From Spirochaetia bacterium (GTDB lineage: Bacteria > Spirochaetota > Spirochaetia > SZUA-6 > Bin103): DNA of 64,000 nucleotides. Shown piece after piece: positions 1 through 27,407 of the stretch (position 1 is its first letter; every line of letters begins with the position of its first letter). The stretch lies in the NCBI GenBank assembly GCA_965203055.1, contig OZ241863.1:2784001-2848000 (forward strand). The letters are read 5' to 3'. Made by a program: the position numbers and the translations under genes. The notes under the pieces were generated by a model that did not search any database, was not told the origin of the DNA, and was given only the letters and a program-made list of their open reading frames with translations.

Positions 1-888
1 GAACCGCCGTTCGGGCCGGTCCTCTACGCGCGCCGCATCTACCACAACACCGTGCTCGCGGTCACCGCGGTCGATCTGTCCCGGGTCGATGAGGCGACCG
101 CCGACCGCTATCGCCAGGCGTACCGCGCGACGGTGGCCGGGGAGCCGCTCTTCCGGTCGGAGTTCGACCTCTACCTCGACGGCCGCACGCTGACCTACGT
201 CAAGGAGACGTGCCGCCCGGGGGATACCGTGCATCCGTTCCGGCTGCTGGCCGCGCCCGTCGCGGTCGATGACCTTCCCCGCATCCGCCGGGAGGGCGGC
301 TGGGACCCGCTCACCTTCCGGTTCGGCCACTACGGGGTGCGCTTCGACGACCGGTGTATGATACGCCGCATCTTGCCGGACTACCCGATCCGGGCGCTCG
401 AAGTCGGCCGGCTGGTCCCCGGCGCAGGCGCCCTGATAGAAGCGACCATCGACCTTGCCGCCGCGGAACCGTCCGTGAGCCGGCATTGGCAGGCGCATGA
501 GGAGATCGTCGCCGGGGACCGGGGCGAGCCGGCCGCCCGCGCCGCCTTCGACCTCTATCTCGACGGCGGCGTGCTGACCTACCACAAGGAGCCGTGCGCA
601 GCGGCGGACGTGTGGGCGCGGTTCTTCCTGCACGTGTTTCCGTCGGACGCGGCGGAGATGTCCCCGCAGGGCAGCGCGCACGGCTTCGACAACCTGGACT
701 TCGCCTACGCCGAGCACGGCGTGCTGCTGGGGGGAGCATGCGTGGCGCAGGCGCCGTTGCCGGACTACGCGATCGCCCGCGTCCGCACCGGCCAGTTCAT
801 CAGCGGGCAGGGCCAGCTCTGGAGGGCGGAGTTCCCGGTGCCGGCGCCGGGGCCGGGGTCAGGGCCGGGAGCCGTGAGCCGGCGGTGA
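1..888 (+). CDS. 5'-truncated membrane glycosyltransferase-like protein (paralog of 18595..21252), two copies of the shared C-terminal domain
   Basis: Frame is open from base 1. EPPFGPVLYARRIYHNTVLAVTA matches PVSPALYARRVYHNTILTVTA in 18595..21252. Two FDLYLDG..LTY.KE.C repeats follow. Confidence 0.8.
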   Translation, partial: EPPFGPVLYARRIYHNTVLAVTAVDLSRVDEATADRYRQAYRATVAGEPLFRSEFDLYLDGRTLTYVKETCRPGDTVHPFRLLAAPVAVDDLPRIRREGGWDPLTFRFGHYGVRFDDRCMIRRILPDYPIRALEVGRLVPGAGALIEATIDLAAAEPSVSRHWQAHEEIVAGDRGEPAARAAFDLYLDGGVLTYHKEPCAAADVWARFFLHVFPSDAAEMSPQGSAHGFDNLDFAYAEHGVLLGGACVAQAPLPDYAIARVRTGQFISGQGQLWRAEFPVPAPGPGSGPGAVSRR

Positions 889-2435
889 AGCGACGGTCAT
901 CCCCCAAGCCGGCGCAGGTCCGCTATAACGACTGGCGGCAGGTGGCGCTGCCGCCGCCGGAAGAGTTCACCCCCGCGCTGCCGGTCAGCGTGATCATGCC
1001 CTGCTATCAGACGCCCCCGGCGGTGCTGGCGCGCACCCTGGCGGCGCTGGCGGGGCAGACCTGGCCGCGCGACCTGTTCGAGGTGGTGATCGTCGACGAC
1101 GGCTCCGAGCCGCCGCTGGCCCCGCCCCCGGGAGCGCCGCCGAACGTCCGGGTGGTGCGCCAGGAGCGCCGCGGGTTCGGAATCGCGCGCGCGCGCAACA
1201 CCGGCGTGCGGGCGGCCGCGCACAGCATCATCCTGTTCCTGGACGGCGATTCGCTGCCGGAAGCGGGTTGGCTGGCGGCGCACGCCCGCTGGCATCACGC
1301 CGTGTCCGACGTGGTGACCGTGGGCTTCCGCGCCAGCGTCGCGATGGAGGACCTGGAGGCGGCGGCGATCCGGCGCCGGCCCGGCACCCTGCGCGAGCTG
1401 TTCGCGGACCGCCCGGTCGACGCCCCCTGGATCGACGGCCACCTGCTGCGGATGGCCGACATGACGACGCGCGCGGCCGATCTGTTCCACGTGGTGGTCG
1501 GGGGGAACTTCGGGATCGGCCGGGAGTTCTACCGGGAGACAGGCGGCAGCGACGAGTCGTTCATGCGCTGGGGCATCGAGGATACCGAACTCGCCTACCG
1601 GGCCTACACCCGCGGCGGGCTGTTCGTGCCGGTCCGGTCCGCGCTGGTCTGGCATCAGGGGCGCGAGGCCGAAGGCAGGGAGGCGAAGGAGCGCAGCCTG
1701 CGACTGCAAATGGGCAAGGCGGCCAACCTGATCCCCCACCCCCGCTACCGCAGCGCGGCGCGCGGGCGCATCTACGCGGTGCCGCGCTACGTGGCGACCG
1801 TCGAGGCCGGCCACAGTACGGCCGAACAGGTGGCCGAGGCGGCCGTGAACCTGCTGACCGACCGAGCGCATGATCTGGTGGTGCGCATCGAAATCGACGG
1901 GAAGCGCGACGCCGCGGGACTGGCATGGCTCCGGGAAGTATTCGGCCCTGACCCGCGGGTGCATATCGCGCCGGCCCGCTCCGCCCTGGACCAATTCCCG
2001 GCGGCGCCGTTCCACGTCCGGCTGCCGGCCACGGCGGCGGCGAAGAACTTGGTGCACGCTCTGCATTACCACCTGCGGGGCGCGGTCCTCGCCATCTCAT
2101 TGCTGCCGGACGGAACGAGCGTGTCGATCGCCCGCACGTGGGCGCTGCAGCGGGCGCGGCGCGCGGGCGGGAACCTCGCGGACTTCGGCGACGTACGGGA
2201 GCTGGCGCCCGCGAAGCTGAAGCTGAAGACGGCGCCGGGACCGGGAACGGCGCGCGCGGCGGCGCGGAACGCCGCGGGACTGCTCGCCGGATGGCGTTCC
2301 CTGCGCGCCCGAGCGCGGGACGTCTACGATCTCCGGGAGGCGTGGTGGTTCGTCCGCTGGGTGGCGTGGTCGTGCCGGCGGCGGCTGCTGCGCAGAACCG
2401 GCTCCTCATCCACCTCCCGGACCGGCGACTCTTGA
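885..2435 (+). CDS. Glycosyltransferase family 2
   Basis: VSVIMPCY, EVVIVDDGS, ARARNTG, ILFLDGD and WGIEDTELAYR motifs. GTG start at 885 overlaps the upstream TGA (GTGA). Confidence 0.9.
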   Translation: MKRRSSPKPAQVRYNDWRQVALPPPEEFTPALPVSVIMPCYQTPPAVLARTLAALAGQTWPRDLFEVVIVDDGSEPPLAPPPGAPPNVRVVRQERRGFGIARARNTGVRAAAHSIILFLDGDSLPEAGWLAAHARWHHAVSDVVTVGFRASVAMEDLEAAAIRRRPGTLRELFADRPVDAPWIDGHLLRMADMTTRAADLFHVVVGGNFGIGREFYRETGGSDESFMRWGIEDTELAYRAYTRGGLFVPVRSALVWHQGREAEGREAKERSLRLQMGKAANLIPHPRYRSAARGRIYAVPRYVATVEAGHSTAEQVAEAAVNLLTDRAHDLVVRIEIDGKRDAAGLAWLREVFGPDPRVHIAPARSALDQFPAAPFHVRLPATAAAKNLVHALHYHLRGAVLAISLLPDGTSVSIARTWALQRARRAGGNLADFGDVRELAPAKLKLKTAPGPGTARAAARNAAGLLAGWRSLRARARDVYDLREAWWFVRWVAWSCRRRLLRRTGSSSTSRTGDS

Positions 2436-2460
2436 GCGGGCTCGCCGCCAAACACGACGC

Positions 2461-3297
2461 ATGACCGCGCCGCCGATACTGCGCCGCTGCCGGCAGGCGC
2501 TCACGATCGCCGCGAAGCCGGACCTGGTTCGGGAGCTGGCCGGCGCCGCGCTGCGCGGGCGGCTCGCTGCGGCGGCGCGCATGGCGGTTACCGCGGCCCG
2601 TTCTCCCGACCTGGGGGCCGAAAAGATCATCTCCCGAAAATATCGCTATATCTGGCTGTGCGTGCCCAAGGCCGCGTCGCGCAGCATCATGGCGGCGCTG
2701 CAAGGCATCACCCCGGACGACGAGATATTCACCGGAACGAGCGCGGCCGAGCTGTTCGCGCAACGGCCCGAAGCGCGCGACTATTACAGCTTCGCCTTCG
2801 TCAGAAATCCGTACACCCGGGCGCTCTCCTTCTACGCCGACCTGCACTTCGCGCACCTCCGCTATTCCGGCGCCGCGGCGCGCCGGCGCAAGAAGGAGCG
2901 CAGCGCCCGCTTCTTCAAGCGCTTCTACGGGCTGGCCGAGACCGGCGATTTCGACGACTTCTGCCGCTGGCTGAACACGCCCTGGGCTTCGGACGCGGTC
3001 GCCGACCGCCACTTTCTGTCGCAATACCTGCAGATTCGCCTCGACGGCGGGCGCCGGCCCGACTTCGTCGGCCGCTTCGAGAACCTCGACGCCGACTTCC
3101 GCCGCGTCGCCGAGCGGCTCGGCCTGCCGGCGCCGGCGCTGCCCCTGCTGCACACCATGGCCGGCTGGCGCACCACGCCGGCGGCCCTGCAGGCGGCCAG
3201 AGCCGCCATGAGCGCTCAGCTTACCGAGCGCAACAAGGCGTTGCTCCGCGCACGGTACGCGCGCGACTTCGAGCTCGAAGACCATGCTTCGGCATGA
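2461..3297 (+). CDS. Sulfotransferase family 2 (PAPS-dependent carbohydrate sulfotransferase-like)
   Basis: WLCVPKAASRS (5'-PSB), FAFVRNPYTRALSFY (3'-PB), HFLSQ and DFVGRFENL. Confidence 0.85.
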   Translation: MTAPPILRRCRQALTIAAKPDLVRELAGAALRGRLAAAARMAVTAARSPDLGAEKIISRKYRYIWLCVPKAASRSIMAALQGITPDDEIFTGTSAAELFAQRPEARDYYSFAFVRNPYTRALSFYADLHFAHLRYSGAAARRRKKERSARFFKRFYGLAETGDFDDFCRWLNTPWASDAVADRHFLSQYLQIRLDGGRRPDFVGRFENLDADFRRVAERLGLPAPALPLLHTMAGWRTTPAALQAARAAMSAQLTERNKALLRARYARDFELEDHASA

Positions 3298-3336
3298 CCG
3301 GCCGGCCGCCTGCCGGCCTGCCGGCCGGCTGTCCGG

Positions 3337-4263
3337 TCACAGCGCGGCGGCGAACGCGCCGGCGATCCCCGCCGCGGTGAGCCAGCTCGCGCGGTCGCGC
3401 AGCGCGAACACCACCGGATCGTCGTGCACGGCCCCGCGGTTGGCGAGCAGCGTCAGGCGTCCCAGCCAGTAGACCAACAGCAGGCAGATCAGCCACAGGA
3501 ACTCCGGCCGGCCGTACCGCATGCTCACCTCCGGACTCTGGATGTACAGGGCCAGGATGATCACCGCGGCGAAGCCGGCGGCGCCGGCGAGCGCCGCCAC
3601 CACCGGCGCGTCGCCGATCAACCAGGCGCGCCCGTCGGCCGCGAGCCGGCCCGACTCGCGCAGGGCATGCAGCTCGCTCACGCGCTTGACGGCGGCCAGA
3701 GCGATGAACGCGAACAGGAAGAAGGCCAGGAACCACGGGGTCAGCGGGACCGATGCCGCCACCCCGCCGGCGAGTACGCGCACCAGGTGAAGCAGCGACA
3801 GCGTCATGATGTCTACGAACAACCCGCGCTTCAACGCCAGCGAATAGGCTGCGGCCACCAACAGGTAGAGCAGCACCGTCCCGCCGGCGGCGGGCGATAG
3901 CCGGAAGGCGGCGGCGAGTCCGCCGGCCGCCAGCAGCGCGGCCAACCCGATCATCGGCGGCAACCGCACCCGGCCGGCCGCCAGCGGGCGGTGGCGCTTG
4001 CTCGGGTGACGGCGGTCGTGGGGAAGATCGAGCAGGTCGTTGAGGACGTAGGCTCCCGACGCGCACGCCGACAGCGCCGCGAACATCGCCGCCGCCCGCA
4101 GGTACAGCTCGACCTCGGTCGCGTGCGCGGTGATCAGCGGGAGGAACACCAGCGCGTTCTTGACCCATTGGTGCGGGCGCAGAGCGCGGAGATAATCGGC
4201 CGGACCGCCGCCGATTCCGGGCCGCGGGGCGGCGCTGCGGGTGGCTTCCGTTTCGCTCAGCAT
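3337..4263 (-). CDS. UbiA-family prenyltransferase, polyprenyl-phosphate phosphoribosyltransferase (DPPR synthase)-like
   Basis: ALRPHQWVKNALVF and YVLNDLLDLPHDRRHPSKRHRPLAAG, multiple TM helices, HDDPVVFALRD tail. Start placed at the ATG at 4263. Confidence 0.85.
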   Translation of the reverse strand: MLSETEATRSAAPRPGIGGGPADYLRALRPHQWVKNALVFLPLITAHATEVELYLRAAAMFAALSACASGAYVLNDLLDLPHDRRHPSKRHRPLAAGRVRLPPMIGLAALLAAGGLAAAFRLSPAAGGTVLLYLLVAAAYSLALKRGLFVDIMTLSLLHLVRVLAGGVAASVPLTPWFLAFFLFAFIALAAVKRVSELHALRESGRLAADGRAWLIGDAPVVAALAGAAGFAAVIILALYIQSPEVSMRYGRPEFLWLICLLLVYWLGRLTLLANRGAVHDDPVVFALRDRASWLTAAGIAGAFAAAL

Positions 4264-4357
4264 GCGCGGCGGCGCGGGCGGGTCCGATGGAAGACGCGCA
4301 TGACCGGATGATATACTACCCCGCCGGTCGGCGGCCGGATGGCATGGAAAGAACAGC

Positions 4358-6313
4358 GTGAGGATCAGCTCCCCCGGCGCACGTTCACGTTCCGGCTTCA
4401 CCCTGTTCCTGGCCGCGCTGGCGGTAGCGGGCGCCGGGCTGGTGCTGGCGCGGGAAGTCACCTACGGGCCGGGACTGAGGGGTGACGCCCTCGGCCTGAT
4501 AGCGATGGCCCGCAACCTGCTGGCCGGCGAGGGCCTTACCTATATCAGCGGCCGCGCCCAGACCAACTGGCCGCCGTTCTACCCGCTGCTGCTGGCCGCC
4601 GGCGGCCTGGTGGGGTTCGACCCGCTTCACGTCGCCGGTCCGCTCAACGCGGCCCTCTTCGGGCTGACCGTCTTCATCGCCGGGCGCCACCTGCGCCGGC
4701 GCCTCCGGTCGCGCTTCCTGGCGGTGTGGGCCGCGCTTGCGGTCGTCCTGTCGGTGCCGCTGGCGACGCGGGCGTGGACGGCGATGTCCGAACCGACCTT
4801 CATCCTGCTGGCGGCCGCAGCGCTGATGCAGACCGACCGGTTCCTCACCGAAGGGCGCACTCCGGCCCTGGCGTGGGCCGCGGTCTGCGGCTCGCTGGCG
4901 TTCCTGACCCGCTACGCGGGCGTGGCCGTGCCGTTGGCCGTGGGGCTGGCGCTGCTCTGCCAACCGCGCGCGTCGTTCCGGCAGCGGGCGGGGCGGATCG
5001 CCGCGGTGGCGCTGACCGCCGCCGTTCCCATGGCGCTGTGGCTGCTCCGCAACTACCTGGTCACCGGGCAGCTCATCAAGCAGGTGGCCGACCTGCGGCC
5101 TCCCATCCTGTCCGTGCCGGCGGCGCTCGACGGGGTGCGCGCCACGCTGTGGGAATGGTCGTACCTCGACTTCCTGCCGCCCGCGGTCACCTGGGCGCTG
5201 CTGGCGCTGGCCGCCGCGGCGCTGCTGCCGATCGGCCTGGCGGCGGTCGGAGGGCGGCGCGAGCGGCCGCCGTTCGCGTGGCACGCCGTGCTGGTGTTCG
5301 GCGGTTTCACGCTGCTCTATCTCGTCGTGCTCATCGCTTCGATCACCACCCTCCCGCATCCCTGGCAGTCCCGGTTCCTGGCTCCGGTCTACGTCCCGCT
5401 GCTGGCGATCGCGGCGTTCGCCCTCGATTGGTTGCTGGCCGCGCCGCGGCGGCGGAACGCGGCGGCGGCGCGTCTGCCCGGCGCGGTCCTGATGGTGGCG
5501 CTCTCCCTCTGGACGGCGGCGCAGGTGGTGCGCGGCGGCTTCGAGATCCGCCGCCTCAACTCCGACCAGCCGTACCTCAGCTTCCTGTCGCAACCGTGGG
5601 CCGATTCGGCGACCGTGCGGCATCTCCGGGAGAACCCCGGCGGCGGCACGGTCTACAGCAACGTGCGCAACGCGGCGTACCTGTACGGCGACGGAACCGG
5701 GACCTATCACCGGCTTCCGGTGCGCTGGACGGAGCTGCAGGAGCAGGTGGCGGCGGCGCCGGACGGCGCGCGCCTGATCTGGTTCGACGCCTACCGGGTC
5801 GACCTGGTGTGGGGCCTGGTCCCGTACGACTACGGCGTTGCGCAACTGCGCGCGACCCGGGGCCTGGAACCGGTGGCGGAGTTGGCCGACGGCGCCGTCT
5901 TCACGGTAAACGCGGACTACGCGCCGCCCGCCAACGCGCATCTGGCGGCGTATGCGGCGATCGATGCGGGCGCTCTGGGCGAGCCGGCCGCCCGCGCCGC
6001 CTTCGACCTCTATCTCGACGGTAGGGAGCTGGTCTACCTGAAGAAGCCGTGCAGCCCCGACGACGCCGGCGAGCGGTTCTTCCTGCATCTGTTCCCGGCC
6101 GATGCCGCGGACCTGTCCGACCGCGGCCGGCAGCACGGCTTCGACAACCTGGACTTCGACTTCGCGGACCGCGGCGTGTTCCCGGCCGCCGATACGTGCC
6201 TGGCGCTGGTGCCGCTGCCGGACTACGACCGGGGCATCGACCGCATCCGTACCGGCCAGTGGATTCGCGGCGCAGGCCAGCTCTGGAGCGTGGAGTTCCG
6301 GACCTCCGAGTAG
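4358..6313 (+). CDS. GT-C fold (ArnT/PMT-like) membrane glycosyltransferase with one shared C-terminal domain
   Basis: WPPFYPLLLA, MSEPTF and LAFLTRYAG motifs, many TM helices, C-terminal FDLYLDG...RFFLHLFP...GFDNLDF domain. Confidence 0.8.
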   Translation: MRISSPGARSRSGFTLFLAALAVAGAGLVLAREVTYGPGLRGDALGLIAMARNLLAGEGLTYISGRAQTNWPPFYPLLLAAGGLVGFDPLHVAGPLNAALFGLTVFIAGRHLRRRLRSRFLAVWAALAVVLSVPLATRAWTAMSEPTFILLAAAALMQTDRFLTEGRTPALAWAAVCGSLAFLTRYAGVAVPLAVGLALLCQPRASFRQRAGRIAAVALTAAVPMALWLLRNYLVTGQLIKQVADLRPPILSVPAALDGVRATLWEWSYLDFLPPAVTWALLALAAAALLPIGLAAVGGRRERPPFAWHAVLVFGGFTLLYLVVLIASITTLPHPWQSRFLAPVYVPLLAIAAFALDWLLAAPRRRNAAAARLPGAVLMVALSLWTAAQVVRGGFEIRRLNSDQPYLSFLSQPWADSATVRHLRENPGGGTVYSNVRNAAYLYGDGTGTYHRLPVRWTELQEQVAAAPDGARLIWFDAYRVDLVWGLVPYDYGVAQLRATRGLEPVAELADGAVFTVNADYAPPANAHLAAYAAIDAGALGEPAARAAFDLYLDGRELVYLKKPCSPDDAGERFFLHLFPADAADLSDRGRQHGFDNLDFDFADRGVFPAADTCLALVPLPDYDRGIDRIRTGQWIRGAGQLWSVEFRTSE

Positions 6314-6377
6314 CCCGCCGCGCGAGGCTGGATGGCTGGAAGGAGTTGCTCAACCAAGTGAGCGAGAAGCGAGGTGG

Positions 6378-6779
6378 TCATACGGACCGGATCAGTGAGA
6401 GGTTCGGGATAGCAACGAAATCACGGTCGTGAGTAGCCAGCGGGCACTGCAACAGGATAGCGGTCGCGGCGATCCACGCATCGGCCAACTTCAGCTCCCG
6501 ACCGGCCGATCTACGTTCGCTACGCAAGCGGGCGCAGATCCGGACCAATTCGTCACTTGCCCACACGATCTCGTATTGATCGAGGTGTTCAGCGAGCGTG
6601 GCTTGGCGCCGTCTCTCCCAATTGCTCTTGTATGCCCCGTACCACAGTTCCTCCAAGGTCTGAAACGAGATGAGACTGCGACAGCCCGCCAGTTTTCCCT
6701 CATAGTATGGTGCCCGGCCATCCTGATTGTAGATGATCGAAACGACACTGGTGTCAACGACTACCAGCGGAGCGCTCAT
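6378..6779 (-). CDS. PIN-domain (VapC-like) toxin
   Basis: VVDTSVVS, TLEEL, ADAWIAATA and LATHDRDF. ATG overlaps the upstream stop (TGATG). Confidence 0.9.
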   Translation of the reverse strand: MSAPLVVVDTSVVSIIYNQDGRAPYYEGKLAGCRSLISFQTLEELWYGAYKSNWERRRQATLAEHLDQYEIVWASDELVRICARLRSERRSAGRELKLADAWIAATAILLQCPLATHDRDFVAIPNLSLIRSV

Positions 6780-7627: not shown

Positions 7628-7778
7628 GGGAACCTCCTCGGTGGATAGGAGTGGACTTTGAGATTGGTCCCGATTCTATGGCCACCCAACGGTCAGCCTC
7701 CAGACGCTGGCCGCAGCATAGCACGCCGCGCACGGCTCGACAGACCACGCTCCGCGTGGGGCGCATCGGCGATCTTGA

Positions 7779-9122: not shown

Positions 9123-9128
9123 GGCATA

Positions 9129-9157
9129 AGTATAATCATGGAAACTACTTGAGTCAA
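9129..9157 (-). promoter_or_regulatory. Sigma70-type promoter of the HNH gene, probably leaderless
   Basis: TTGACT-17nt-TATACT, 6 nt before the ATG. Conserved in copy 2 at 52875-52903. Confidence 0.7.
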
Positions 9158-9543
9158 GTTATTCAGCCCGGAAGATGCCACCTGCGGGCGTGATTCGGCG
9201 GCGCATTTCCAAGCGGCTGGACGTTCCGTCATATGCTACTGCCGAGAACGTCGCCGGCGTCGAGCGGCAGGATTTCTTCTTACGGCCCCAGGCGGCCTCG
9301 TCGATCGGTACCAACAAATTGGAAGTGCGCCCTCCGCGTGACGTGGATTCGCGGCGTGGGCCAGCTCTGGAGCCGAGTTCCGGGCCGCCGAGTAGCCGGC
9401 GGCGACAGCCCCCGTTGCCCGGCGCGCAACCGCGCGCGTAGAATCCGGCAACGATGAAATCGATCTTGGCGGCGCTCGGCGTGACGCGCGTGACGCGACG
9501 GACGCGGACGTTGGTTGACACGCCAAGCAGTTCCGTGTACAAA

Positions 9544-9626
9544 CCGCCGACCGCCGACCGCCGACCGCCGACCGCCGACCGCCGACCGCCGACCGCCGAC
9601 CGCCGACCGCCGACCGCCGACCGCCG
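9544..9626 (+). repeat. Heptanucleotide SSR (CCGCCGA)x11 plus CCGCCG
   Basis: Direct count. Confidence 0.95.
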
Positions 9627-11717
9627 TATGGTCGGTCTGGCTCTAGCCTATCGATAGCGGCTGCGTTTATCGCGCTCGGCGCGGCGCTGGCGTCCGCGGA
9701 CGAGACCGCGGTCCTGCGTCACGGCGCGTCGGTCAGCGAGCGCAACGCGCTGATCGTCTACGTGCGGGTAACGCTGGCGCGCGCGGCGCGGGTGTACGTG
9801 GAGTACGACCACCCGCAGGCCGGGCGCTACCGCACGCCGCTGAGCGAGCCGGGCGCGGCGCATGCCATCCCCCTCGTCAGGCTGCGCCCGGAGACGACCT
9901 ACGACTACACCATCTTCGTGGTGAACGGCTCCGTGGCCGACGGCGCAACGCTGGAAGGCGCGGATGCGGATGCGGCCGCCGGGCCGGGCGGCCGGTTCAC
10001 CACCGGATCGCTGCCGGCGCCCCTCGCCGTCATACCGATGAAGGCGCGCGGCAGGAGCTCGCAGCCGCTCATCTTGTCCGATTACCCGCGCGGGTACTAC
10101 GTCTTCTGGGACGAAGTGGGCGGAATAGTCTGGTACCAGGAAGGGTCCGGCGGCCCCATCACGCAGCTGCCGGCCGGCAACCTGATCTTCTTAGATCGGG
10201 GTCTGGTCGAGATCACCCCCCTTGGAGCAGTGGTCAACCGGTTTGAGCGGCACGGCGCCGCGGGGAATCCCCACCATGAGGTCACCCTGCTCGCCGATGG
10301 CCGCGTGATCTACCCGAGCCGGGAGTTCGTCGTCATCGACGACTCGGCGAACGGCGGGCCGGCGGAGGTCACGTTCAAGACCGACCATCTGCGCGTCTGG
10401 GACCGGGAGAGCGGACGCATCGAGCAGGTCTGGGACTCGAAGGACGCCTGGGACCTGATGGACCCGGCACTGCGCGTGAGGAGACCCGGACCCGGGGAAA
10501 TCTTTGATTGGACGCACCTCAACTCGGTGAGCATCGGTCCGCACGGCAACGTCGTCCTGTCGTTCCGCTGGCGCGATCAGGTGGTCTCACTCAGCGCCGA
10601 CTTGCGGGCGATCGAATGGCAACTGAACGGGCCGGACAGCGATTACCGGTTCCCCAACCCGAACGACCGGTTCTACGGGCAGCACACCGCGGCGCAGCTC
10701 GGCAACGGCAACGTTCTGCTGTTCGACAACGGCTGGGGGCGGCCCGCGGCGGAGGGCGGCGCCTACTCGCGCGCGCTGGAGCTGCGGCTGGACAAGGCGG
10801 CCGGCACCGCGGTGAAAGTGTGGGAATATCGGCCGACGCCGGACATCTACACGAGGGGCAAGGGCAGCGCGTACCGGCTGCGCAGCGGCAATACCCTGAT
10901 CAGCTTCCATGACACGATCGTGGAGGTGGACGCTGCCGGCAACGAAGTGTTCCGGGTCGATAACCTGCCATTGCATGCGGATTGGCCCTTGCCGGCGCGC
11001 TATCGAGCCTACGCCGGCAGCGGGGCGATCATGGGCGAAACCATGCTGCGGCCGCCGGCGGCGGCGCCCGCGCACGCGCGCGCCGCGACGTTCGATAAGG
11101 ACTACTACCTGGCCAAGGAGCGGGCGCGGTTCGAGGAGCTGGCGGCGGCCCTGGACGGCCGGCAGCGCGCCGCCGGCGGGGCGTTCGACATGTATCTGGC
11201 AGGGGACCGGCTGGTATACGCGAAGGCGCCTTGCGCTCCGCAGGATGTCCGGGCGCGCTTCTTTCTGCACGTCTTTCCGGCCGCCGAAGACGATCTGGCC
11301 GCAGACAGCCGCGAGCAGGGTTTCGACAACCTCGACTTCGATTTCTGGACGCGCGGCGTGTTCTGGGACGGCGCCTGCCTGGTGGCCGCGACCCTCCCGG
11401 ACTATGAGATCGCCCGCGTCCGTACCGGTCAGTTCATCCGCAGCGTGCGGCAGCTCTGGAGCGTGGAGTCCGCGGTCGGACCGACCGCGCGGCGCTATCG
11501 GGAAGCGCGCGCCGCGATCGTCTCCGGCGCCTGGAGAGCGCCGGTCGCGCGCGCGGCCTTCGACCTCTACCTCGACGGCCGGGTGCTGGCGTACCACAAG
11601 GAGCCGTGCGCGGCGGAGGACCTGCGAGAGCGGTTCTTCCTGCATGTGGTGCCGGCGGCCGTGGAGGACCTTGCCGCGCACTGTCCAGCGACAATCAAGA
11701 TGAGAATGCGCGGGTAG
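9621..11717 (+). CDS. Secreted aryl-sulfate sulfotransferase (ASST-like), copy 1; 5' end out of frame at the SSR, C-terminus truncated
   Basis: PHHE, WTHLNSV, FYGQHTA and LLFDNG motifs with an N-terminal Ig/FN3-like part. Signal peptide (SIAAAFIALGAALASA) is in frame from 9621 but has no in-frame start. The second shared domain breaks off at ~11680. Confidence 0.75.
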   Translation, partial: PPYGRSGSSLSIAAAFIALGAALASADETAVLRHGASVSERNALIVYVRVTLARAARVYVEYDHPQAGRYRTPLSEPGAAHAIPLVRLRPETTYDYTIFVVNGSVADGATLEGADADAAAGPGGRFTTGSLPAPLAVIPMKARGRSSQPLILSDYPRGYYVFWDEVGGIVWYQEGSGGPITQLPAGNLIFLDRGLVEITPLGAVVNRFERHGAAGNPHHEVTLLADGRVIYPSREFVVIDDSANGGPAEVTFKTDHLRVWDRESGRIEQVWDSKDAWDLMDPALRVRRPGPGEIFDWTHLNSVSIGPHGNVVLSFRWRDQVVSLSADLRAIEWQLNGPDSDYRFPNPNDRFYGQHTAAQLGNGNVLLFDNGWGRPAAEGGAYSRALELRLDKAAGTAVKVWEYRPTPDIYTRGKGSAYRLRSGNTLISFHDTIVEVDAAGNEVFRVDNLPLHADWPLPARYRAYAGSGAIMGETMLRPPAAAPAHARAATFDKDYYLAKERARFEELAAALDGRQRAAGGAFDMYLAGDRLVYAKAPCAPQDVRARFFLHVFPAAEDDLAADSREQGFDNLDFDFWTRGVFWDGACLVAATLPDYEIARVRTGQFIRSVRQLWSVESAVGPTARRYREARAAIVSGAWRAPVARAAFDLYLDGRVLAYHKEPCAAEDLRERFFLHVVPAAVEDLAAHCPATIKMRMRG

Positions 11718-11842
11718 GGCGGCTGCCTCCGACAGAGGAGGATGGAGGGGCCGCCGGCGGCGGCTAGCCCGTGGCGATGATTCGGCGGCCGTCTACCGCC
11801 GTGCGTTGAAGCGCCGCAGACGGCCGGCCCGTAGTAGGGGAC

Positions 11843-12835: not shown

Positions 12836-13021
12836 CGACACCTTCGAGGAGCTCGGTCGCGCGGCACGGGTGTACAAGGAACCTTGCGCTCCGCAGGATG
12901 TCCGGGCGAGATTCTTCCTGGAGCGCGGAGATTGCGGCGCCCCGCCGCAGCGCGGGAGAGCCGTAAAGGCCGGCGATGAGCGGATGATAGCCGAGCGTCG
13001 TTCGGCTATCATGGCCGGACC

Positions 13022-14599: not shown

Positions 14600-14771
14600 C
14601 GCCCCGCCCCAGCGTCGGCGTGCCGTTTCGACGGCGCCTGCGCGGCGGTCAGGAAACCATGAGGCTGGCGTGGCGGTTGTCCGGCGCGCAACCGCGCGCG
14701 TAGAATCCGGCAACGATGAAATCGATCTCGACGGCGCTCGGCGCGACGCGCGTGACGGACGCGGACGTTGG

Positions 14772-16718
14772 TTGACACGCCAAGCAGTTCCGTGTACAAA
14801 CCGCCGAACCGCCGAACCGCCGCCGTATGGTCGGTCTGGCTCTAGCCTATCGCTAGCGGCTGCGTTGATCGTGTTCGGCGCGGCGCTGGCGTACGCGGAC
14901 GTGCCCGCCGTCCTGCGCCACGACGCGTCGGTCAGCGAGCGCAACGCGCTGATCGTCTACGTGCGGGTAACCCTGGCGCGCGCGGCGCGGGTGTACGTGG
15001 AGTACGACCACCCGCAGGCCGGCCGCTACCGCACGCCGCTGAGCGAGCCGGGCGCGGCGCACGCCATCCCGCTCGTCCGGCTGCGCCCGGAAACGACCTA
15101 CGACTACACCATCTTCGTAGTGGATGGCGCCGCGGTGGACGGCGCGGATGCGACCGCCGGGCCGCGCGGCCGGTTCACCACCGGACCGCTGCCGTTGCGT
15201 CTCGCCGCCATTCCGATGAAGGTGCGCGGCAGAAGCTCGCAACCGCTCATCCTGTCCGATTACCGGCGCGGGTACTACGTCTTCTGGGACGAGGTGGGCG
15301 CAGTCGTCTGGTACTACGATGCGCCCGGCGCCTGGTCGTTTCAGCCCGGCCCCATCACTCAGTTGCCCTCCGGCACCTTCCTCTTCATGAACCGCGGCAG
15401 GGGTTTGATCGAGATCACCCCATTGGGAGAGGTGGTCAACCGGTTGGAGCCGGACGGCGCAACGGGGAATCCCCACCATGAGGTGACCCTGCTCGACGAT
15501 CGGCGCGTGATCTACCCGAGCCGGGAGATCGTCGTCTTCGACGACTCGGCGAACGGCGGTCCGGCGGAGGTTGAGATCAGGGCCGACAACCTGCGCGTCT
15601 GGGACCGCGCGAGCGGACAGGTCGAGCAGGTCTGGGACTCCAAGGCAGCATGGGACCTGCCGGACCCGGCCCAGCGCGTGACAGGCCCCCGAGGCCCCTT
15701 CGGCGGGACACACCTCAACTCGGTGAGCAGCGGTCCGCGCGGCAACGTCGTCCTGTCGTTCCGCCTGCGCAATCAGGTGGTCTCGCTCAGCGCCGACTTG
15801 CGGACGATCGAATGGCAACTGAACGGGCCGGACAGCGATTACGAGTTCCCGAACCCGAACGACCGGTTCTACGGGCAGCACACGGCGGCGCAGCTCGACA
15901 ACGGCAACGTTCTGCTGTTCGACAACGGCTGGGGCCGGCCCGCGGCGGAGGGCGGCCGCTACTCGCGCGTGCTGGAGCTGCGGCTGGACGAGGCGGCCGG
16001 CACCGCGGTGAAGGTGTGGGAATATCGGCCGACGCCGGACGTCTACACGATGGGCAGAGGCAGCGCGTACCGGCTGCGCAACGACAATACCTTGATCAAC
16101 TTCAACAACAACGGTATTCATTTCGTCGTTGAGGTGGACGCCGCCGGCAACGAAGTGTTCCGGAGCGATGACCTGCCATTGCATGCGGATTGGCGCTTGC
16201 CGGCGCGCTATCGAGCTTACGGCGGCATCGGGGCGATCATGGGCGAAACCATGCTGCGGCCGCCGGCGGCGGCGCCCGCATACGCGCGCGCCGCGACGTT
16301 CGAGAAGGATTACTACCTGGCCAAGGAGCGGGCGCGGTTCGAGGAGCTGGCGGCGGCCCTGGACGGGCGGCAGCGCGCCGCCGGCGGGGCGTTCGACGTG
16401 TATCCGGCAGGCGACCGGCTGCTATACGCGAAGCAGCCCTGCGCTCCGCAGGATGTCCGGCGGACGCGCTTCTTTCTGCACGTCTTTCCGGCCGCCGAAG
16501 ACGATCTGGCCTCCGGGAGCAGGGAGCAGGGATTCGACAACCTCGACTTCGATTTCTGGACGCGCGGCGTGTTCTGGGACGGCGCCTGCCTGGTGGCCGC
16601 GACGCTCCCGGAGTATGAGATCGCCGGCCTTCGGACCGGCCAGTTCGGCGGGGATTGGAGCGTGGAGTTCCCGGTCGGACCGACCGCGCAGCGCTATCGG
16701 CAAAGCGCGCGCCCATGA
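14772..16718 (+). CDS. Secreted aryl-sulfate sulfotransferase (ASST-like), copy 2
   Basis: Close paralog of copy 1. Signal peptide SLAAALIVFGAALAYA. Frame is open through (CCGCCGAA)x2 at 14801-14816. Start uncertain; TTG at 14772 used. One shared domain. Confidence 0.8.
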   Translation: MTRQAVPCTNRRTAEPPPYGRSGSSLSLAAALIVFGAALAYADVPAVLRHDASVSERNALIVYVRVTLARAARVYVEYDHPQAGRYRTPLSEPGAAHAIPLVRLRPETTYDYTIFVVDGAAVDGADATAGPRGRFTTGPLPLRLAAIPMKVRGRSSQPLILSDYRRGYYVFWDEVGAVVWYYDAPGAWSFQPGPITQLPSGTFLFMNRGRGLIEITPLGEVVNRLEPDGATGNPHHEVTLLDDRRVIYPSREIVVFDDSANGGPAEVEIRADNLRVWDRASGQVEQVWDSKAAWDLPDPAQRVTGPRGPFGGTHLNSVSSGPRGNVVLSFRLRNQVVSLSADLRTIEWQLNGPDSDYEFPNPNDRFYGQHTAAQLDNGNVLLFDNGWGRPAAEGGRYSRVLELRLDEAAGTAVKVWEYRPTPDVYTMGRGSAYRLRNDNTLINFNNNGIHFVVEVDAAGNEVFRSDDLPLHADWRLPARYRAYGGIGAIMGETMLRPPAAAPAYARAATFEKDYYLAKERARFEELAAALDGRQRAAGGAFDVYPAGDRLLYAKQPCAPQDVRRTRFFLHVFPAAEDDLASGSREQGFDNLDFDFWTRGVFWDGACLVAATLPEYEIAGLRTGQFGGDWSVEFPVGPTAQRYRQSARP

Positions 16719-18258
16719 CGCGCAGGAAGCTGCCGATCGGCATCCAGACCTTCCGCAAGCTCCGCGAGGACGACTGCTACTACGTCGACAAGACCGCCTT
16801 CATCCTCCGCTTGACGCGCGCCGGCACCCACTACTTCCTGTCGCGCCCGCGCCGCTTCGGCAAGAGCCTGCTGCTCGACACCATCAAGGAACTGTTCGAG
16901 GGCAGCGAGGAACTGTTCCGCGGCCTGTACGTGCACGACCACTGGGAGTGGTCCAAGCGCCGCCCGGTGGTGCGGCTCGACTTCGGCGCCGGCGACTACC
17001 GCGACCCGGCCCTGCTGGAAGCCAGCGTCATGGAGCAGCTCGCCGCCATCGAGCGGCGCGCCGGTATCACCCCCGAGTACCGCACGGCCCCGGGTCGGCT
17101 GGCCTACCTGCTGGAAGTGCTGCACGACCGATCCGGGCAACGGGTGGCGTTCCTGGTCGACGAGTACGACAAGCCGATCCTGGACGTGCTGGAGCACAAG
17201 GAGACGGCGCGCGCCAACCGCGGCTACCTGCGCGGGCTGTACGCGACCATCAAGACCTGCGACGCGCACGTCGAGTTTACGCTGCTGACCGGGGTGAGCA
17301 AGTTCTCCATGGCTAGCGTGTTATCCGGCGGCCTCAACAATCTGATCGACATCACGCTGGATCGGCGCTACTCGGCGATCTGCGGCTATACCGAAGCGGA
17401 TCTCGACACGGTGTTCGCGCCGGAGTTGGCCGGGCTGGACCGCAACCGGATCCGCGATTGGTACAACGGCTATAACTGGCTGGGCGAGGAGCGGGTCTAC
17501 AACCCGTTCGACATTCTGCTGCTGTTCGACGAGCGGACGTTCGCGGCGCACTGGTTCGAGACCGGCACGCCGGCGTTTCTTATCGACACGCTGATCGAAC
17601 GCGGGGTCGCGGCCCCGGCGCTGGACGGGATGCTGGCCGGAGCGGACCTGCTGTCCGCGTTCGACGTGGACGAGATGGAGCCGGCCGCGCTGCTGTTCCA
17701 GACCGGCTACCTGACCATCCGGGACGTCGAAGATGACGACGACGAGCCGCTCTACCGGCTCGGCTATCCCAACCGCGAGGTGCGGCAGAGCCTGAACCGC
17801 CACCTGCTGCGCGCGCTCGGCGCGGCGGATCAGGCCGCAGACCGGGCCGCCTGCGCCGGCTGCTGGCGACGCGCGACTTCGCGGGGTTGGAGGCGCTGTT
17901 CCGGGCGTTCTTCGCCGGCATCCCGTACGAGTGGCACACGCGCAACGACATCGCACGCTACGAGGGCTACTACGCGACCGTGTTCTACGCCTGGTTCGCG
18001 GCGGCGGGACTGGAGCCGGCAGCCGAAGAGTCGAGCAGCCGCGGGCGGGTCGACTTGGCGGTCCGGTACCGGGGCGCCGTCTATCTGTTCGAATTCAAGG
18101 TGGTGGAGCTGGAGCCCGAAGGCGCGGCGCTGGCGCAGTTGCGGGCGCGCGGCTACGCCGACAAGTACCGAGCTTCCGGGGAGCCGATCCACCTGATCGG
18201 GGTGGAGTTCAGCCGCGAGGCGCGCACCATCGCCGCCTTCGAGGTGGCCCGCGCCTGA
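16715..18258 (+). pseudogene. AAA-ATPase/PD-(D/E)XK copy 2, 1-nt frameshift near 17844
   Basis: Two overlapping ORFs. GACCGGGCCG here versus GACCGCGGCCG in copy 4. ATGA overlap with the ASST2 stop. May be a sequencing error. Confidence 0.8.
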
Positions 18259-18594: not shown

Positions 18595-21252
18595 ATGCCG
18601 AGATGGTTGACACACATGGCAACACAAGGCATCCTGTCGCCGAACCGCCGAACCGCCGAACCGCCGAACCGCCCGCCGAACCGCCGAACCGCCGAACCGC
18701 CGAACCGCCGAACCGCCGAACCGCCGAACCGCCGAACCGCCGAACCGCCGAACCGCCGAACCGCCGAACCGCCGAACCGCCGAACCGCCGAACCGCCGAA
18801 CCGCCGAACCGCCGAACCGCCGAACCGCCGAACCGCCGAACCGCCGAACCGCCGAACCGCCGAACCGCCGAACCGCCGAACCGCCGAACCGCCGAACCGC
18901 CGACGGCGGTTGCCGTGGCGTGACGCGCTCGTCGCGCTGACGGCCTTCGCGGCGCTGGGCGCCGCCCTCCTCGACGACTACGGCGTGGCGTGGGACGAGG
19001 CCGTGCAGCGCAGCACCGGCTTGGCGGTAATCGCCTACGCGCTGGGTGACGGCGCCCTGCCGACAGACGACGACCGATACTACGGAGCCGCGTTCGAAGC
19101 GCCGCTGATCCTGGTCGAGCGGCTGCTCGGCCTCACCGACAGCCGCGCCGTCTACCTCAGCCGCCATCTGCTGACCCACCTGTTCTTCCTCACCGGCGGC
19201 TTCTTCTGCTGGCTGCTCGCCTTCCGCCTGTTCCGCGACCGCCGGCTGGCGCTGTTCGCCCTGCTGCTGTTCCTGCTGCAGCCCCGCCTGTACGCCCACT
19301 CCTTCTTCAACACCAAGGACATCCCCTTCCTGGTCATGTTCATGATCGCGCTCTATCTGACGCAGCGCGCCTTCCGCCGCGACACCGCCGCGGCGTTCGC
19401 GCTCTGCGGGCTGGGCGTGGGCGTGCTGGTCAACCTGCGCGTCATGGGCCTGCTGCTGTGCGCCGCGGTGCCGGCGCTGCGGGCGCTCGACCTGCTGCAG
19501 GCGCACGGGCCGGCGGAGCGGAGGCGCGCGCTGGCGACCGCCGGGGCGTTCCTGCTGGCCGCGGCGGCGGCCCTGTACGCGGTCTCGCCCCATCTCTGGC
19601 GCAACCCGCTTGAGCTGATCGACGCGGTCGTCACGCTTCCGCGCCATCGGGCCTACCTTCCGACGCTGTTTCAGGGCGAGCTGGTGCGCTGGCCTGAGAT
19701 TCCTCCGCACTACCTGCCGACCTGGATGGCGATCACCACGCCGCCGGCGGCGCTGCTGCTGAGCGTGGCCGGGATGGTCACCGTGCTCGCACGCGGCCTG
19801 ACCCGCCCGCGCGAGGTCCTCCGCAACACCCCGGTCACGCGCTTCGGGGCGCTGCTGGCCGCCTGTCCGGCGCTGTCGGTCGCGGCCGTCATCGCGGTAA
19901 ACGCCAACCTCTACGACGGCTGGCGGCACATGTATTTTCTGGCCGCCCCACTGTGCCTGCTGGCGGTCTACGGCCTGCGCCGGCTGCTGGCCGCCGCGCG
20001 CCGGCCGTGGCTGCGGCGCGGCGTCTACGCGCTGGCCGCGGCGGGCGTGGCCGCGGCCGCGGCCGAGATGGCGCTGATCCACCCGCATCAGATGGTGTAC
20101 TTCAACTTCCTGGTCGACCGCCGCACCCCCGAATACCTGCGCACCCGCTACGAGATGGAGTACTGGGGGCCGGCCTACCGCGAGGGGCTGGAGTATCTCC
20201 TCCGCCGCGCTCCGCAGGCCACCATCCACATTGTTGCGGCGAAGAACTGGAGGCGCGCTCTGCACGTTCTCGCCGCAGCCGAGCGCCGTCGAATTGTCAT
20301 CACCGACCGCGTGCACGACCCGCCGGACCATCACTACGTCATCACCAACCACAACACCGTCACCAATCATACTCGCGGCTATGAGCGCCGCAGCTTCCCG
20401 GTCTCGCCCGCGCTATATGCGCGCCGCGTCTACCACAACACCATCCTCACGGTGACCGCCCTCGACCCGGCGCAGCTCGACGCTGCGACCGTTGCGGACT
20501 TCCGGGAAGCGTACCGCGCCGCACGGTCGCGGGAGCCGGTCGCGGCGGAATCGGACTTCGACCTGTATCTCGACGGCACCACGCTGACCTACGTCAAGGA
20601 TGCCTGCCCGGTGGAAGACCTGGAGAGGAAGTTGTTCCTGCACGTCTTCCCGGCGGACGCCGCCGACCTGCCCGCCCACCAGCGGGAGTCGGGATTCGAC
20701 AATCTGGACTTCTACCTCTGGGAGGGCGGCATGCGGCTCGACGGCGCCTGCGTGGCGGTCGTGGCACTGCCCGACTACGAGTTCACCCGCATCCGTACCG
20801 GGCAACTCGCTGCGCGGGGCCGGCCCCAACTGTGGAGCGTGGAGTTCGCGGCCGGACCGACCGCGCAGCGCTATCGGGAGGCGCGCGCCGCTATCCGCTC
20901 CGGCGCCTGGGGAGCGCCGGCCGCCCGCGGAGCCTTCGACCTCTATCTCGACGAAACGGTGCTGGCGTATCACAAGGATCGGTGCGTGGCGGAGGACCTG
21001 CGGGCGCGGTTCTTCCTGCACGTGATTCCGGCGGACGCCGGCGACCTCTCCCCGCAAGACCGGCCGCACGGCTTCGAGAACCGGGACTTCGACTACCGGG
21101 AACACGGGGCGCGGCTCGGCGCGGCGTGCGTGGCGCTGGCGCCGTTGCCGGAGTATGGGATCGCCCGCCTCCGCACCGGCCAGTTCATCAGCGGCCAAGG
21201 CCAGCTCTGGAGCGCGGAGCTTGCGGCGCCGGCCGCGGCGCAGGGGCCATGA
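18595..21252 (+). CDS. GT-C fold membrane glycosyltransferase with N-terminal SSR and two shared C-terminal domains
   Basis: DYGVAWDE, YYGAAFE, HSFFNTKDIPF, YDGWRH and YEMEYWG. Alternative starts at 18616 (ATG) and 18910 (TTG, after the repeat). Confidence 0.85.
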   Translation: MPRWLTHMATQGILSPNRRTAEPPNRPPNRRTAEPPNRRTAEPPNRRTAEPPNRRTAEPPNRRTAEPPNRRTAEPPNRRTAEPPNRRTAEPPNRRTAEPPNRRRRLPWRDALVALTAFAALGAALLDDYGVAWDEAVQRSTGLAVIAYALGDGALPTDDDRYYGAAFEAPLILVERLLGLTDSRAVYLSRHLLTHLFFLTGGFFCWLLAFRLFRDRRLALFALLLFLLQPRLYAHSFFNTKDIPFLVMFMIALYLTQRAFRRDTAAAFALCGLGVGVLVNLRVMGLLLCAAVPALRALDLLQAHGPAERRRALATAGAFLLAAAAALYAVSPHLWRNPLELIDAVVTLPRHRAYLPTLFQGELVRWPEIPPHYLPTWMAITTPPAALLLSVAGMVTVLARGLTRPREVLRNTPVTRFGALLAACPALSVAAVIAVNANLYDGWRHMYFLAAPLCLLAVYGLRRLLAAARRPWLRRGVYALAAAGVAAAAAEMALIHPHQMVYFNFLVDRRTPEYLRTRYEMEYWGPAYREGLEYLLRRAPQATIHIVAAKNWRRALHVLAAAERRRIVITDRVHDPPDHHYVITNHNTVTNHTRGYERRSFPVSPALYARRVYHNTILTVTALDPAQLDAATVADFREAYRAARSREPVAAESDFDLYLDGTTLTYVKDACPVEDLERKLFLHVFPADAADLPAHQRESGFDNLDFYLWEGGMRLDGACVAVVALPDYEFTRIRTGQLAARGRPQLWSVEFAAGPTAQRYREARAAIRSGAWGAPAARGAFDLYLDETVLAYHKDRCVAEDLRARFFLHVIPADAGDLSPQDRPHGFENRDFDYREHGARLGAACVALAPLPEYGIARLRTGQFISGQGQLWSAELAAPAAAQGP
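18637..18903 (+). repeat. Octanucleotide SSR (CCGCCGAA), 31 perfect units plus partial units, one 4-nt interruption at 18669-18672
   Basis: Direct count. Confidence 0.95.
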
Positions 21253-27356: not shown

Positions 27357-27407
27357 CTTGTGCCCCATCACCGGGTCACCTGACCCGTACCTCAAGGAGA
27401 CCGACCC

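Follow-up and report, generated by a model that had tools for sequence, protein, structure and literature searches.

Immunoglobulin-like (Ig-like) accessory domains at the periplasmic tail of glycosyltransferases of the GT-C class already have precedents. The GT136 systems (Kelly et al. 2024, PMC11127046) have three parts, the GT-C enzyme being accompanied by a polyprenyl-phosphoribose synthase and a flippase. In ORF12 of Citrobacter youngae O1, a member of this group, an Ig-like C-terminal domain follows the last helix, and the purified domain bound unmodified O-polysaccharide in vitro (PMC11127046). The same text cites the carbohydrate-binding modules (CBMs) of mycobacterial EmbC and AftD, which are likewise extracytoplasmic accessory modules of GT-C enzymes, as binding the acceptor polysaccharide. 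Here we describe a domain of about 100 residues, with two near-invariant cysteines, that recurs at the C-termini of otherwise unrelated enzymes encoded in a stretch of 64,000 nucleotides (hereafter the window; contig OZ241863.1, positions 2,784,001 to 2,848,000) from a Spirochaetia bacterium. The domain is, by profile searches, a sequence family new to the libraries searched (Pfam-A, NCBIfam and the PDB) and is modelled as an Ig-like sandwich; tentatively, we read it as a module that tethers its enzyme to an acceptor glycan.

The preliminary description of the window, made from the sequence alone, had listed eight stretches bearing the domain. All are real: translation of the five plus-strand frames, a motif scan and a hidden Markov model (HMM) together find seven full copies and one partial copy (Table 1), and the consensus it quoted agrees with that of our alignment. 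An orphan fragment in a 44-residue frame makes a ninth stretch, additional to those eight. We built the HMM from the seven full copies of the window and searched every stop-to-stop frame of the genome with it (4,557,819 bases in one contig); these copies score there with E-values of 1e-35 to 1e-50 and so lie far beyond chance. Genome-wide there are 37 hits in 26 frames (33 near-full and four partial copies, E-values 7.8e-50 to 7.6e-6), and an independent profile search likewise counts 37. Most of the carrier frames cluster at 2.78-2.81 Mb, which is the window, and at 2.95-3.00 Mb. The G+C content of the window is about 70%. The first copy of the window belongs to a divergent subtype that keeps both cysteines, G61, P75 and Y77, and is without the FFLH, GFDNLDF, RTGQ and LW motifs; the copy of the second arylsulfate sulfotransferase (ASST)-like gene is slightly eroded, with the reading FDVYPAG and a short deletion before WSVEF.

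The domain had been called unannotated, and for Pfam-A, NCBIfam and the sequences of the PDB this holds, with no confident match to a characterised domain family in Pfam, NCBIfam or the PDB. The five window proteins match nothing over the domain in Pfam-A or NCBIfam at E ≤ 0.01. Scanned singly against Pfam at E ≤ 10, the 33 near-full copies give sub-threshold chance rows only (Subtilosin_A in eight of the 33, AfAlkA-like in three and GH114 in one), and a profile search of PDB sequences at E ≤ 10 gives a single chance row at E = 0.59. Nothing usable came from the ESM Atlas, and eight protein clusters looked up by exact sequence carried no source name. A full-text literature search, with subscription journals outside its scope, found no paper on the domain or on the pairing of GT-C and ASST enzymes.

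The family is nonetheless large. The profile of the 33 genome copies (alignment A1) was run against 1.84 billion representative proteins, and retrieved 2309 at E ≤ 1e-3, 1851 at E ≤ 1e-10 and 658 at E ≤ 1e-30; these matches are clusters at 50% identity. The top match is a protein of 1851 residues with ten domain copies. A word-indexed search with one copy retrieved 176 proteins, almost all metagenomic. An unnamed family of 2309 such clusters, with up to ten copies per protein, constitutes an annotation blind spot among envelope glycan enzymes.

Architectures were examined in the 263 distinct proteins listed by the profile and word-indexed searches, a sample of best-scoring matches that is biased to multi-copy forms. 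One copy is present in six proteins, two in 58, three in 121, four in 56, five in 14, six in two, seven in four, and eight and ten in one each. In 262 of the 263, no more than 30 residues lie between the end of the array and the C-terminus. The array is preceded by at least five hydrophobic segments in 192 proteins, by three or four in nine, by one or two in 33 and by none in 29, several of the short proteins being clearly cut gene calls. In four cases (P0139, P0182, P0268 and P0128) the array stands alone behind only a signal or anchor segment. Partner domains were listed with Pfam for 45 of the proteins: PMT_2 or PMT in eight, Wzy_C and Glucos_trans_II in one each, and Polysacc_deac_1 in one, where it lies behind the array of a single long-tailed protein; 29 gave nothing and five gave weak rows that we read as chance.

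In the genome itself the carriers fall into three enzyme groups, in agreement with the earlier placing of the domain on two GT-C types and on ASSTs, which Pfam matches and pairwise comparison of the carriers bear out. GT-C enzymes of PMT_2 type account for nine frames, eight with two copies and the ninth with one (29.7-38.8 bits against a PMT_2 cut-off of 26.1); a DDYG..DE stretch after the first transmembrane helix is taken to be the GT-C acidic motif. The eight ASST-like frames have one copy each (Arylsulfotrans, PF05935, 76-116 bits, cut-off 24.2), and that at 9762-11717 alone also holds a partial copy. The second GT-C type, typified by the gene at 4358-6313, comprises six frames with one or two copies and about nine hydrophobic segments. 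Its PMT_2 matches stay below threshold, the typical member reaching 22.7 bits, so that topology and weak matches are the basis of its assignment to GT-C. Its members have 35-47% identity among themselves, and the only part they share with the PMT_2 type is the domain described here. Three further frames are fragments with a partial or orphan domain. A single carrier in this genome has a non-terminal array: a 1654-residue frame (L005:8357-13318, minus strand, genome 191357-196318). It has roughly twice as many hydrophobic segments as usual; residues 1096-1291 hold its two domain copies, and some 360 further residues without a Pfam match follow.

A beta-sandwich had been proposed for the domain, and structure prediction agrees. 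The AlphaFold2 model of the copy at 538-840, made with alignment A1, has a mean predicted local distance difference test score (pLDDT) of 91.8 and a predicted TM-score (pTM) of 0.83, and is all-beta, with seven strands and three short helices. A Foldseek search of the PDB with this model returned no match at E ≤ 0.001. In a VIA-align comparison with 48,161 chains the best Z was 8.0, to the fibronectin type III (FN3) domain of the IL-21 receptor (root-mean-square deviation, rmsd, 3.4 Å over 90 aligned residues), and a tail at Z 6-7.6 held FN3, glycoside hydrolase family 2 (GH2) Ig-like, DUF3244, superoxide reductase and monobody chains, among them a GH2 Ig domain at Z 7.6 and NCAM FN3 at Z 7.0. 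Rescoring of the top 1000 Foldseek matches gave a best Z of 7.8, to the Ig-like domain of LacZ. Since Z values of 7-8 are typical for models without a clear relative, these matches define no specific structural relative: on the model, the domain is an Ig/FN3-like sandwich in fold class only. It resembles generic domains of that class (cytokine-receptor FN3, GH2 Ig-like, DUF3244) at Z 7-8, with rmsd 2.5-3.4 Å over 76-94 aligned residues, but identity to them is 4-13%, and both the pair of cysteines at positions 20 and 68 and the FDLYL, FFLHxxP, GFxNLDF, LPDY and RTGQ motifs are specific to this family. The CBMs of EmbC, AftD and GT136 type are not among the structural matches listed for the isolated domain, a listing that does not exclude them. 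A complex prediction for two domain copies gave no answer (score 0.00, mark 0.42, no controls) and speaks neither for nor against self-association.

The full-length model of a GT-C carrier (window 18907-21249, alignment A2 of 47 sequences; pLDDT 83.6, pTM 0.79) places a helical membrane core first, then a mixed alpha/beta domain on the periplasmic side and finally two domain copies, each preceded by a linker helix (Table 1). In the model, then, one helix and one sandwich make up a repeating unit of about 125 residues, of which the domain alone takes about 100. With Foldseek the whole model matches AglB (E = 3.2e-5), ArnT (2.3e-4) and AftD (4.2e-3; 6w98), and its core also matches STT3 subunits, ALG12, ALG9, AftA and PglB. 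Because the core matches AglB, STT3, ArnT and other GT-C structures, the GT-C fold of this carrier is confirmed.

Short loops rich in lysine and arginine alternate with long loops in both GT-C enzymes of the window, and this positive-inside pattern puts the tail after the last membrane segment outside the cytoplasm. An extracytoplasmic position of the C-terminal soluble domains is established for the GT-C families whose structures were matched. The ASSTs have one N-terminal hydrophobic segment that ends in AYA and resembles a signal peptide. The arrays are therefore predicted to be extracytoplasmic, from charge bias and from the GT-C fold. The carriers had been called exported enzymes; this description suits the ASSTs, whereas the GT-Cs are polytopic membrane enzymes with a C-terminal tail predicted to lie outside the cytoplasm.

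The extracytoplasmic location bears on the cysteines. Among 742 near-full copies, 731 of them distinct, C68 is present in all 731 and C20 in 730, and no other position is cysteine more than once. In a mean-field coupling analysis of the 731 sequences (effective number 530, pairs at least six apart ranked), columns 18 and 67 rank 6th and columns 18 and 66 rank 34th, which supports contact between the two cysteine-bearing segments; the pair 20-68 itself ranks 5th, but with both columns invariant this value cannot be relied on. A 465-residue fusion of VKOR with a DsbA-like domain (Thioredoxin_4; genome 2123538-2124650, minus strand) is encoded in the genome and is likely to be the disulfide-forming system of this organism; a DsbB was looked for in the genome and none was found. 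The near-invariant pair, the covariation of positions 18 and 67, the location and the fusion protein together make a C20-C68 disulfide likely. The domain had earlier been described as disulfide-bonded, and it is in this likely form that the claim stands, the bond itself being something we infer.

What might such a domain do? Envelope glycans are the substrates of all identified carriers, which work on them from the outer side of the membrane. We suggest, with a little less than even confidence, that the domain is an acceptor-tethering, CBM-like module. On this view it is an extracytoplasmic, probably disulfide-stapled Ig-like sandwich with a short helix before it, and its C-terminal arrays of 1 to 10 copies belong to enzymes working at the outer side of the cytoplasmic membrane. 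Its target would be the surface glycan or glycoconjugate on which the attached enzyme acts, and binding would keep the enzyme on its polymer. Several copies would add avidity. A common module would steer different enzymes, here two GT-C types and ASST-like propellers, to one substrate, and elsewhere the proteins bearing Wzy_C, GtrII or deacetylase domains would be steered likewise. Both the binding of a ligand and the nature of that ligand are points that we infer. Of the roles proposed earlier for the domain (glycan binding, anchoring or complex assembly), glycan or acceptor binding is favoured because of the architecture and the published precedent (PMC11127046). The conserved polar and aromatic residues, the stand-alone arrays and the way in which subtypes persist with carrier and position also speak for it. 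If the domain does bind the acceptor, it would represent a new CBM-like family and would help to find the surface polymer of these Spirochaetia, Dehalococcoidia and Acidobacteria, which are uncultured and apparently associated with sponges.

Comparison with the precedents brings out both likeness and difference. As in ORF12, the GT-C enzyme has a beta-rich Ig-like domain after its last transmembrane helix, on the periplasmic side, and the locus includes a UbiA-family gene for a polyprenyl-phosphoribose synthase, here a putative one beside the GT-C gene 4358-6313, in keeping with a shared donor logic (PMC11127046). Unlike the single domain of about 150 residues described there, the present one is of about 100 residues plus a helix, has two invariant cysteines, comes in 1 to 10 tandem copies and recurs on ASST-like and other enzymes. 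The likeness is one of position and fold class. In contrast to the GT136 loci, no MATE flippase gene was seen next to the GT-C genes of the window. The resemblance to EmbC and AftD likewise lies in an extracytoplasmic accessory module on a GT-C enzyme; neither is among the listed neighbours of the isolated domain, and AftD was matched by the full-length model only.

Several observations weigh against acceptor tethering. Since enzymes of the PMT family can act on protein acceptors, what the domain binds could itself be a protein. The isolated domain found nothing in the PDB at the Foldseek threshold, and its structural neighbours are generic Ig/FN3 domains with a best Z in the common range; entries of CBM-like type (1izj at Z 6.9, 2djm at Z 6.4) are not set apart from cytokine receptors or monobodies. 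The architecture sample is biased to multi-copy forms. Finally, the CBM of ORF12 was not essential for activity (PMC11127046).

Some of the same facts would suit a protein-binding module, one that recognises a protein acceptor such as an S-layer protein or a lipoprotein, to be O-glycosylated and sulfated, or that joins GT-C and ASST in a complex. Protein mannosylation is the activity of the named members of the PMT/PMT_2 family, to which carriers belong; GT-C and ASST genes adjoin several times; and the Ig/FN3 structural neighbours are mostly protein binders. Moreover, eukaryotic TMTC proteins and many bacterial PMT_2 proteins have C-terminal arrays of tetratricopeptide repeats for protein recognition. 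We consider this unlikely, given that the carriers with Wzy_C, GtrII or deacetylase domains and the neighbouring gene for a putative polyprenyl-phosphoribose synthase point to glycan substrates, and that a copy number varying from 1 to 10 is more typical of avidity for a repetitive polymer.

The terminal, multi-copy form of the arrays raises a different possibility, since wall-binding repeats (LysM, SLH, SH3b) are arranged similarly: the domain may be an envelope anchor, binding a fixed layer such as peptidoglycan, the inner face of the outer membrane or an S-layer, and thus positioning the enzymes rather than holding their substrate. The stand-alone anchored arrays are in keeping with this, as is a weak Foldseek match to archaeal FlaF (soluble domain, 4zbh, E = 0.02, TM-score 0.53), although that match is not significant. 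Most carriers, however, are already fixed in the membrane by their five or more segments, so that an extra anchor would add little, and the domain occurs across lineages labelled Spirochaetia, Dehalococcoidia and Acidobacteria, whose envelopes differ. We judge an anchor unlikely.

The domain also resembles the C-terminal domain (CTD) of Type IX secretion substrates (mirolase CTD, 8qb1, Z 6.5) in being Ig-like, some 80-100 residues long and at the extreme C-terminus. The Type IX CTD is a single cleavable signal on secreted proteins of Bacteroidota, whereas the present domain forms tandem arrays on polytopic membrane proteins of Spirochaetia, Dehalococcoidia and Acidobacteria lineages. A secretion signal of this kind was rejected, 2-10 copies being present in 257 of the 263 proteins and at least five hydrophobic segments in 192.

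Conservation within the domain is relevant to whether it has a ligand at all. The positions best kept in the 731 copies are F4, D5, Y7, L13, Y15, C20, D24, F29, L31, P35, L41, G49, F55, F57, G61, C68, A70, L74, P75, Y77, T84, G85, Q86 and W95; D5, Y7, Y15, D24, Y77, T84, Q86 and W95 are retained in 76-97%. The divergent d1 subtype, comprising two of the 33 genomic copies on a long branch (the first copy of ORF 1-888 and that of one paralog), retains the cysteine pair, G61, P75 and Y77, and has lost H32, N52, D54, T84, Q86 and W95. The fold therefore does not need these last six residues, as would be expected if they formed a functional site. An inert structural domain, serving as a spacer, folding aid or protease shield without a ligand, would be consistent with the purely generic Ig-like structural matches, and many bacterial Ig-like domains are indeed spacers. 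Here, though, nothing is left distal to the terminal arrays to be positioned, which makes them terminal modules; the polar residues Q86 (94%), T84 (86%) and D24 (88%) are conserved although copies are about 50% identical; and the family reaches 10-120 copies per genome. An inert role is accordingly very unlikely in our estimation.

Searches of other genomes show how the domain is distributed taxonomically. Among the 40 nearest relatives of the source genome five are positive, all of the same family, with 48, 40, 50, 10 and 22 matches, and none of 300 other genomes drawn across the phylum has a match. A search for related loci with a single domain copy found four metagenome-assembled genomes (MAGs) in other phyla, three of Dehalococcoidia (G341, G342, G343) and one of 'Ca. 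Marinacidobacterium' (G344), with 120, 79, 56 and 67 matches respectively. In these genomes of 2.5-4.5 Mb the matches are scattered over the chromosome and the expansion is larger than in the window's own genome, the 120 copies belonging to a Dehalococcoidia genome of 3.2 Mb. Three of 60 relatives of the first Dehalococcoidia genome are positive, two of which are already among these MAGs, the third having two matches. Six carrier frames from the four MAGs gave PMT_2 in four (one below the cut-off), a weak GT87 match in one and nothing in one. Among the genomes searched the domain thus occurs in lineages labelled Spirochaetia, Dehalococcoidia and Acidobacteria, and its distribution is patchy: all or nothing, and strongly expanded in a few lineages from three phyla. 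Such a distribution fits horizontal spread followed by growth of paralogs. With 10-120 copies per genome and two or three on each carrier of about 850 residues, the carriers take an estimated few per cent of a 3-Mb genome, which implies that the function of the domain matters to these organisms.

Habitat information comes from sequencing runs. The window DNA or close paralogs occur in runs of seven studies with sponge metagenome, marine metagenome or coded-organism labels, and in one sponge-labelled run 160 of 691 contigs are at least 99% identical to window DNA. The carrier lineages are apparently sponge-associated. No RNA run is among those listed with window DNA.

Within the genome, a maximum-likelihood tree of the 33 copies shows domain subtypes tracking carrier and position. 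All nine d2-type copies, including one from a 207-residue fragment, form a clade (support 98/95), as do all eight ASST copies (100/99), and the ASST clade is sister to the main d1 clade (97/80). It follows from this grouping that the domain seldom moved between the GT-C and the ASST genes, and afterwards diverged together with its carrier. Recombination among carrier genes still occurs, to judge from the partial copy of the ASST gene 9762-11717, where 11451-11680 is 84% identical in DNA to 20827-21056, the linker and d2 start of the GT-C gene 18595-21252. The two window ASST genes are about 94% identical in DNA over the stretches compared. The presence of a common module on GT-C and ASST-like enzymes suggests that glycosylation and sulfation independent of 3'-phosphoadenosine-5'-phosphosulfate (PAPS) may be coupled in the periplasm.

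The partial copy of the ASST gene 9762-11717 is part of a longer stretch. Some 1.5 kb at 11451-12918, placed between the ASST's domain and the next AAA-ATPase-like gene, contains the GT-C-type linker, half a domain copy and a gene for an Rpn/YhgA-like recombination-promoting nuclease (11843-12835). Contigs of four sequencing runs join 11436 to 12918/12919, and probably come from paralogs without this stretch.

Short tandem repeats mark the 5' coding ends of several carrier genes. Besides the 7-bp and 8-bp arrays of Table 1, there are carrier-gene repeats of these unit lengths at window 14800-14822 and at genome 2988110-2988287 and 2992975-2993139. Arrays of the 8-mer occur at just four places in the genome, all of them 5' ends of carrier genes (about 34, 22 and 20 units in three GT-Cs and two units in one ASST), and the array of 12 7-mers is unique; the 7-mer x12 and the 8-mer x34, x22 and x20, with 96-100% match, all lie at carrier genes. 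In the GT-C genes the repeat is in frame after a conserved start, MA[TI][QR]GILS, and encodes PNRRTAEP repeats before the first membrane helix. The native start of the ASSTs is a conserved ATG (MKSI...), as shown by a paralog with an intact frame. In the ASST gene 9762-11717 translation from the ATG at 9454 runs on through the repeat to a stop at 9655, in a frame shifted by one base from that of the enzyme; one unit more or two fewer would bring the two into register. In the ASST gene 14670-16718 the ATG frame ends ahead of the repeat, but there is an in-frame GTG upstream. In a related genome two GT-C frames have 20 and 11 units at their 5' ends, where the genome studied here has 34, 22 and 20. 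The Logan contigs of four runs over 9200-13200 are short pieces from a paralog-rich region, and none spans the 84-bp repeat.

These features suggest that the repeat-bearing carriers are candidate phase-variable (contingency) genes. In translational phase variation of the opa type, a change in unit number shifts the reading frame. As in Neisseria opa, the repeat here is short, has a unit that is not a multiple of three and lies in the leader or N-terminal coding region; unlike opa, the units are of 7 and 8 bp rather than 5, and arrays reach 34 units. The repeats suggest stochastic variation of surface chemistry. A conserved TTGACA box before the repeats was considered as a -35 promoter element and rejected, since in the GT-C genes the start codon follows it after just a few bases; conserved leader or 5' coding sequence is more likely.

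Taken with the distribution described above, the repeats invite a bolder proposal, namely that the domain marks a horizontally shared kit for editing surface glycans in sponge-associated bacteria, partly repeat-switched and varying a sulfated glycan coat. The dozens of GT-C and periplasmic sulfotransferase-like paralogs in each genome would, through one module, address the same envelope polymer; the 7-bp and 8-bp repeats would switch some of the enzymes on and off; and the partly sulfated glycan coat, differing from one cell line to the next, would govern recognition by host or phage. We regard this proposal in its entirety as improbable.

Table 1. Features of the window, with residue ranges for the full-length GT-C model (window 18907-21249)
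Feature	Window position	Strand	Model residues	Match or remark
PMT_2-type GT-C gene, 3' part, two terminal domain copies	1..888	+		PMT_2 37.9 bits, cut-off 26.1; whole frame genome 2782393-2784885, 831 aa
Domain copy d1 of ORF 1-888	154..456	+		i-E 3.9e-40; divergent subtype
Domain copy d2 of ORF 1-888	538..840	+		9.5e-48; copy used for isolated fold model
GT2 glycosyltransferase gene	594..2435	+		Glycos_transf_2 6.1e-21
Sulfotransfer_2 family gene	2461..3297	+		9.8e-18
UbiA-family gene, divergent from GT-C 4358-6313	3340..4461	-		NF006088 5.5e-104; decaprenyl-phosphate phosphoribosyltransferase 7.5e-42
Second-type GT-C gene, 651 aa, one C-terminal domain copy	4358..6313	+		PMT_2 22.7 bits, below cut-off
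Domain copy on second-type GT-C	5993..6304	+		6.9e-45
(ACCGCCG)x12 perfect repeat, signal-peptide coding part of ASST gene 9762-11717	9543..9626	+		Tandem Repeats Finder (TRF)
ASST-like gene, listed from GTG 9762, one full and one partial copy	9762..11717	+		Arylsulfotrans 1.4e-24
Domain copy, ASST subtype	11175..11477	+		7.8e-50
Partial domain copy, profile positions 1-44	11550..11681	+		4.5e-16
Second ASST-like gene	14670..16718	+		Pfam ASST above cut-off
Domain copy, ASST subtype, slightly eroded	16383..16676	+		5.4e-42
PMT_2-type GT-C gene with two domain copies	18595..21252	+		PMT_2 match; GT-C fold model
(CGCCGAAC)x33.8 repeat just after start codon of GT-C 18595-21252	18638..18903	+		TRF
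Helical membrane core			1-401	
Mixed alpha/beta domain, periplasmic			422-518	
Linker helix before d1	20482..20526	+	526-540	
Domain copy d1 of GT-C 18595-21252	20548..20853	+	552-648	3.2e-45
Linker helix between d1 and d2	20854..20901	+	650-665	
Domain copy d2 of GT-C 18595-21252	20926..21228	+	678-773	5.4e-46
Orphan domain fragment, profile positions 73-101, in 44-aa frame	22870..23001	+		E 7.6e-6

Of the genes next to the carriers, the UbiA-family gene resembles a polyprenyl-phosphate phosphoribosyltransferase, and the GT2 reading frame overlaps the gene before it, its true start probably being later. An AAA-ATPase_like gene with a PDDEXK_9 (PD-(D/E)XK) domain is present in four copies (13042-14596, 16708-18193, 21331-22882 and 24611-26154), 85-99% identical over the stretches compared, three of which directly follow a domain-bearing gene; these could be mobile or recombination-related passengers. 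An HNH endonuclease gene (7782-9158, minus strand) lies in a stretch of lower G+C content (63% in 6001-8000). Further downstream, a Mu-like transposase gene (rve, Mu-transpos_C; 27384-28748) is followed by a 351-residue PMT_2 frame (29874-30926) without the C-terminal domain, probably a truncated paralog. Beyond it, at 31643-31966, lies a 120-bp tandem repeat (2.7 copies, 80% match) that would encode a 40-residue protein repeat.

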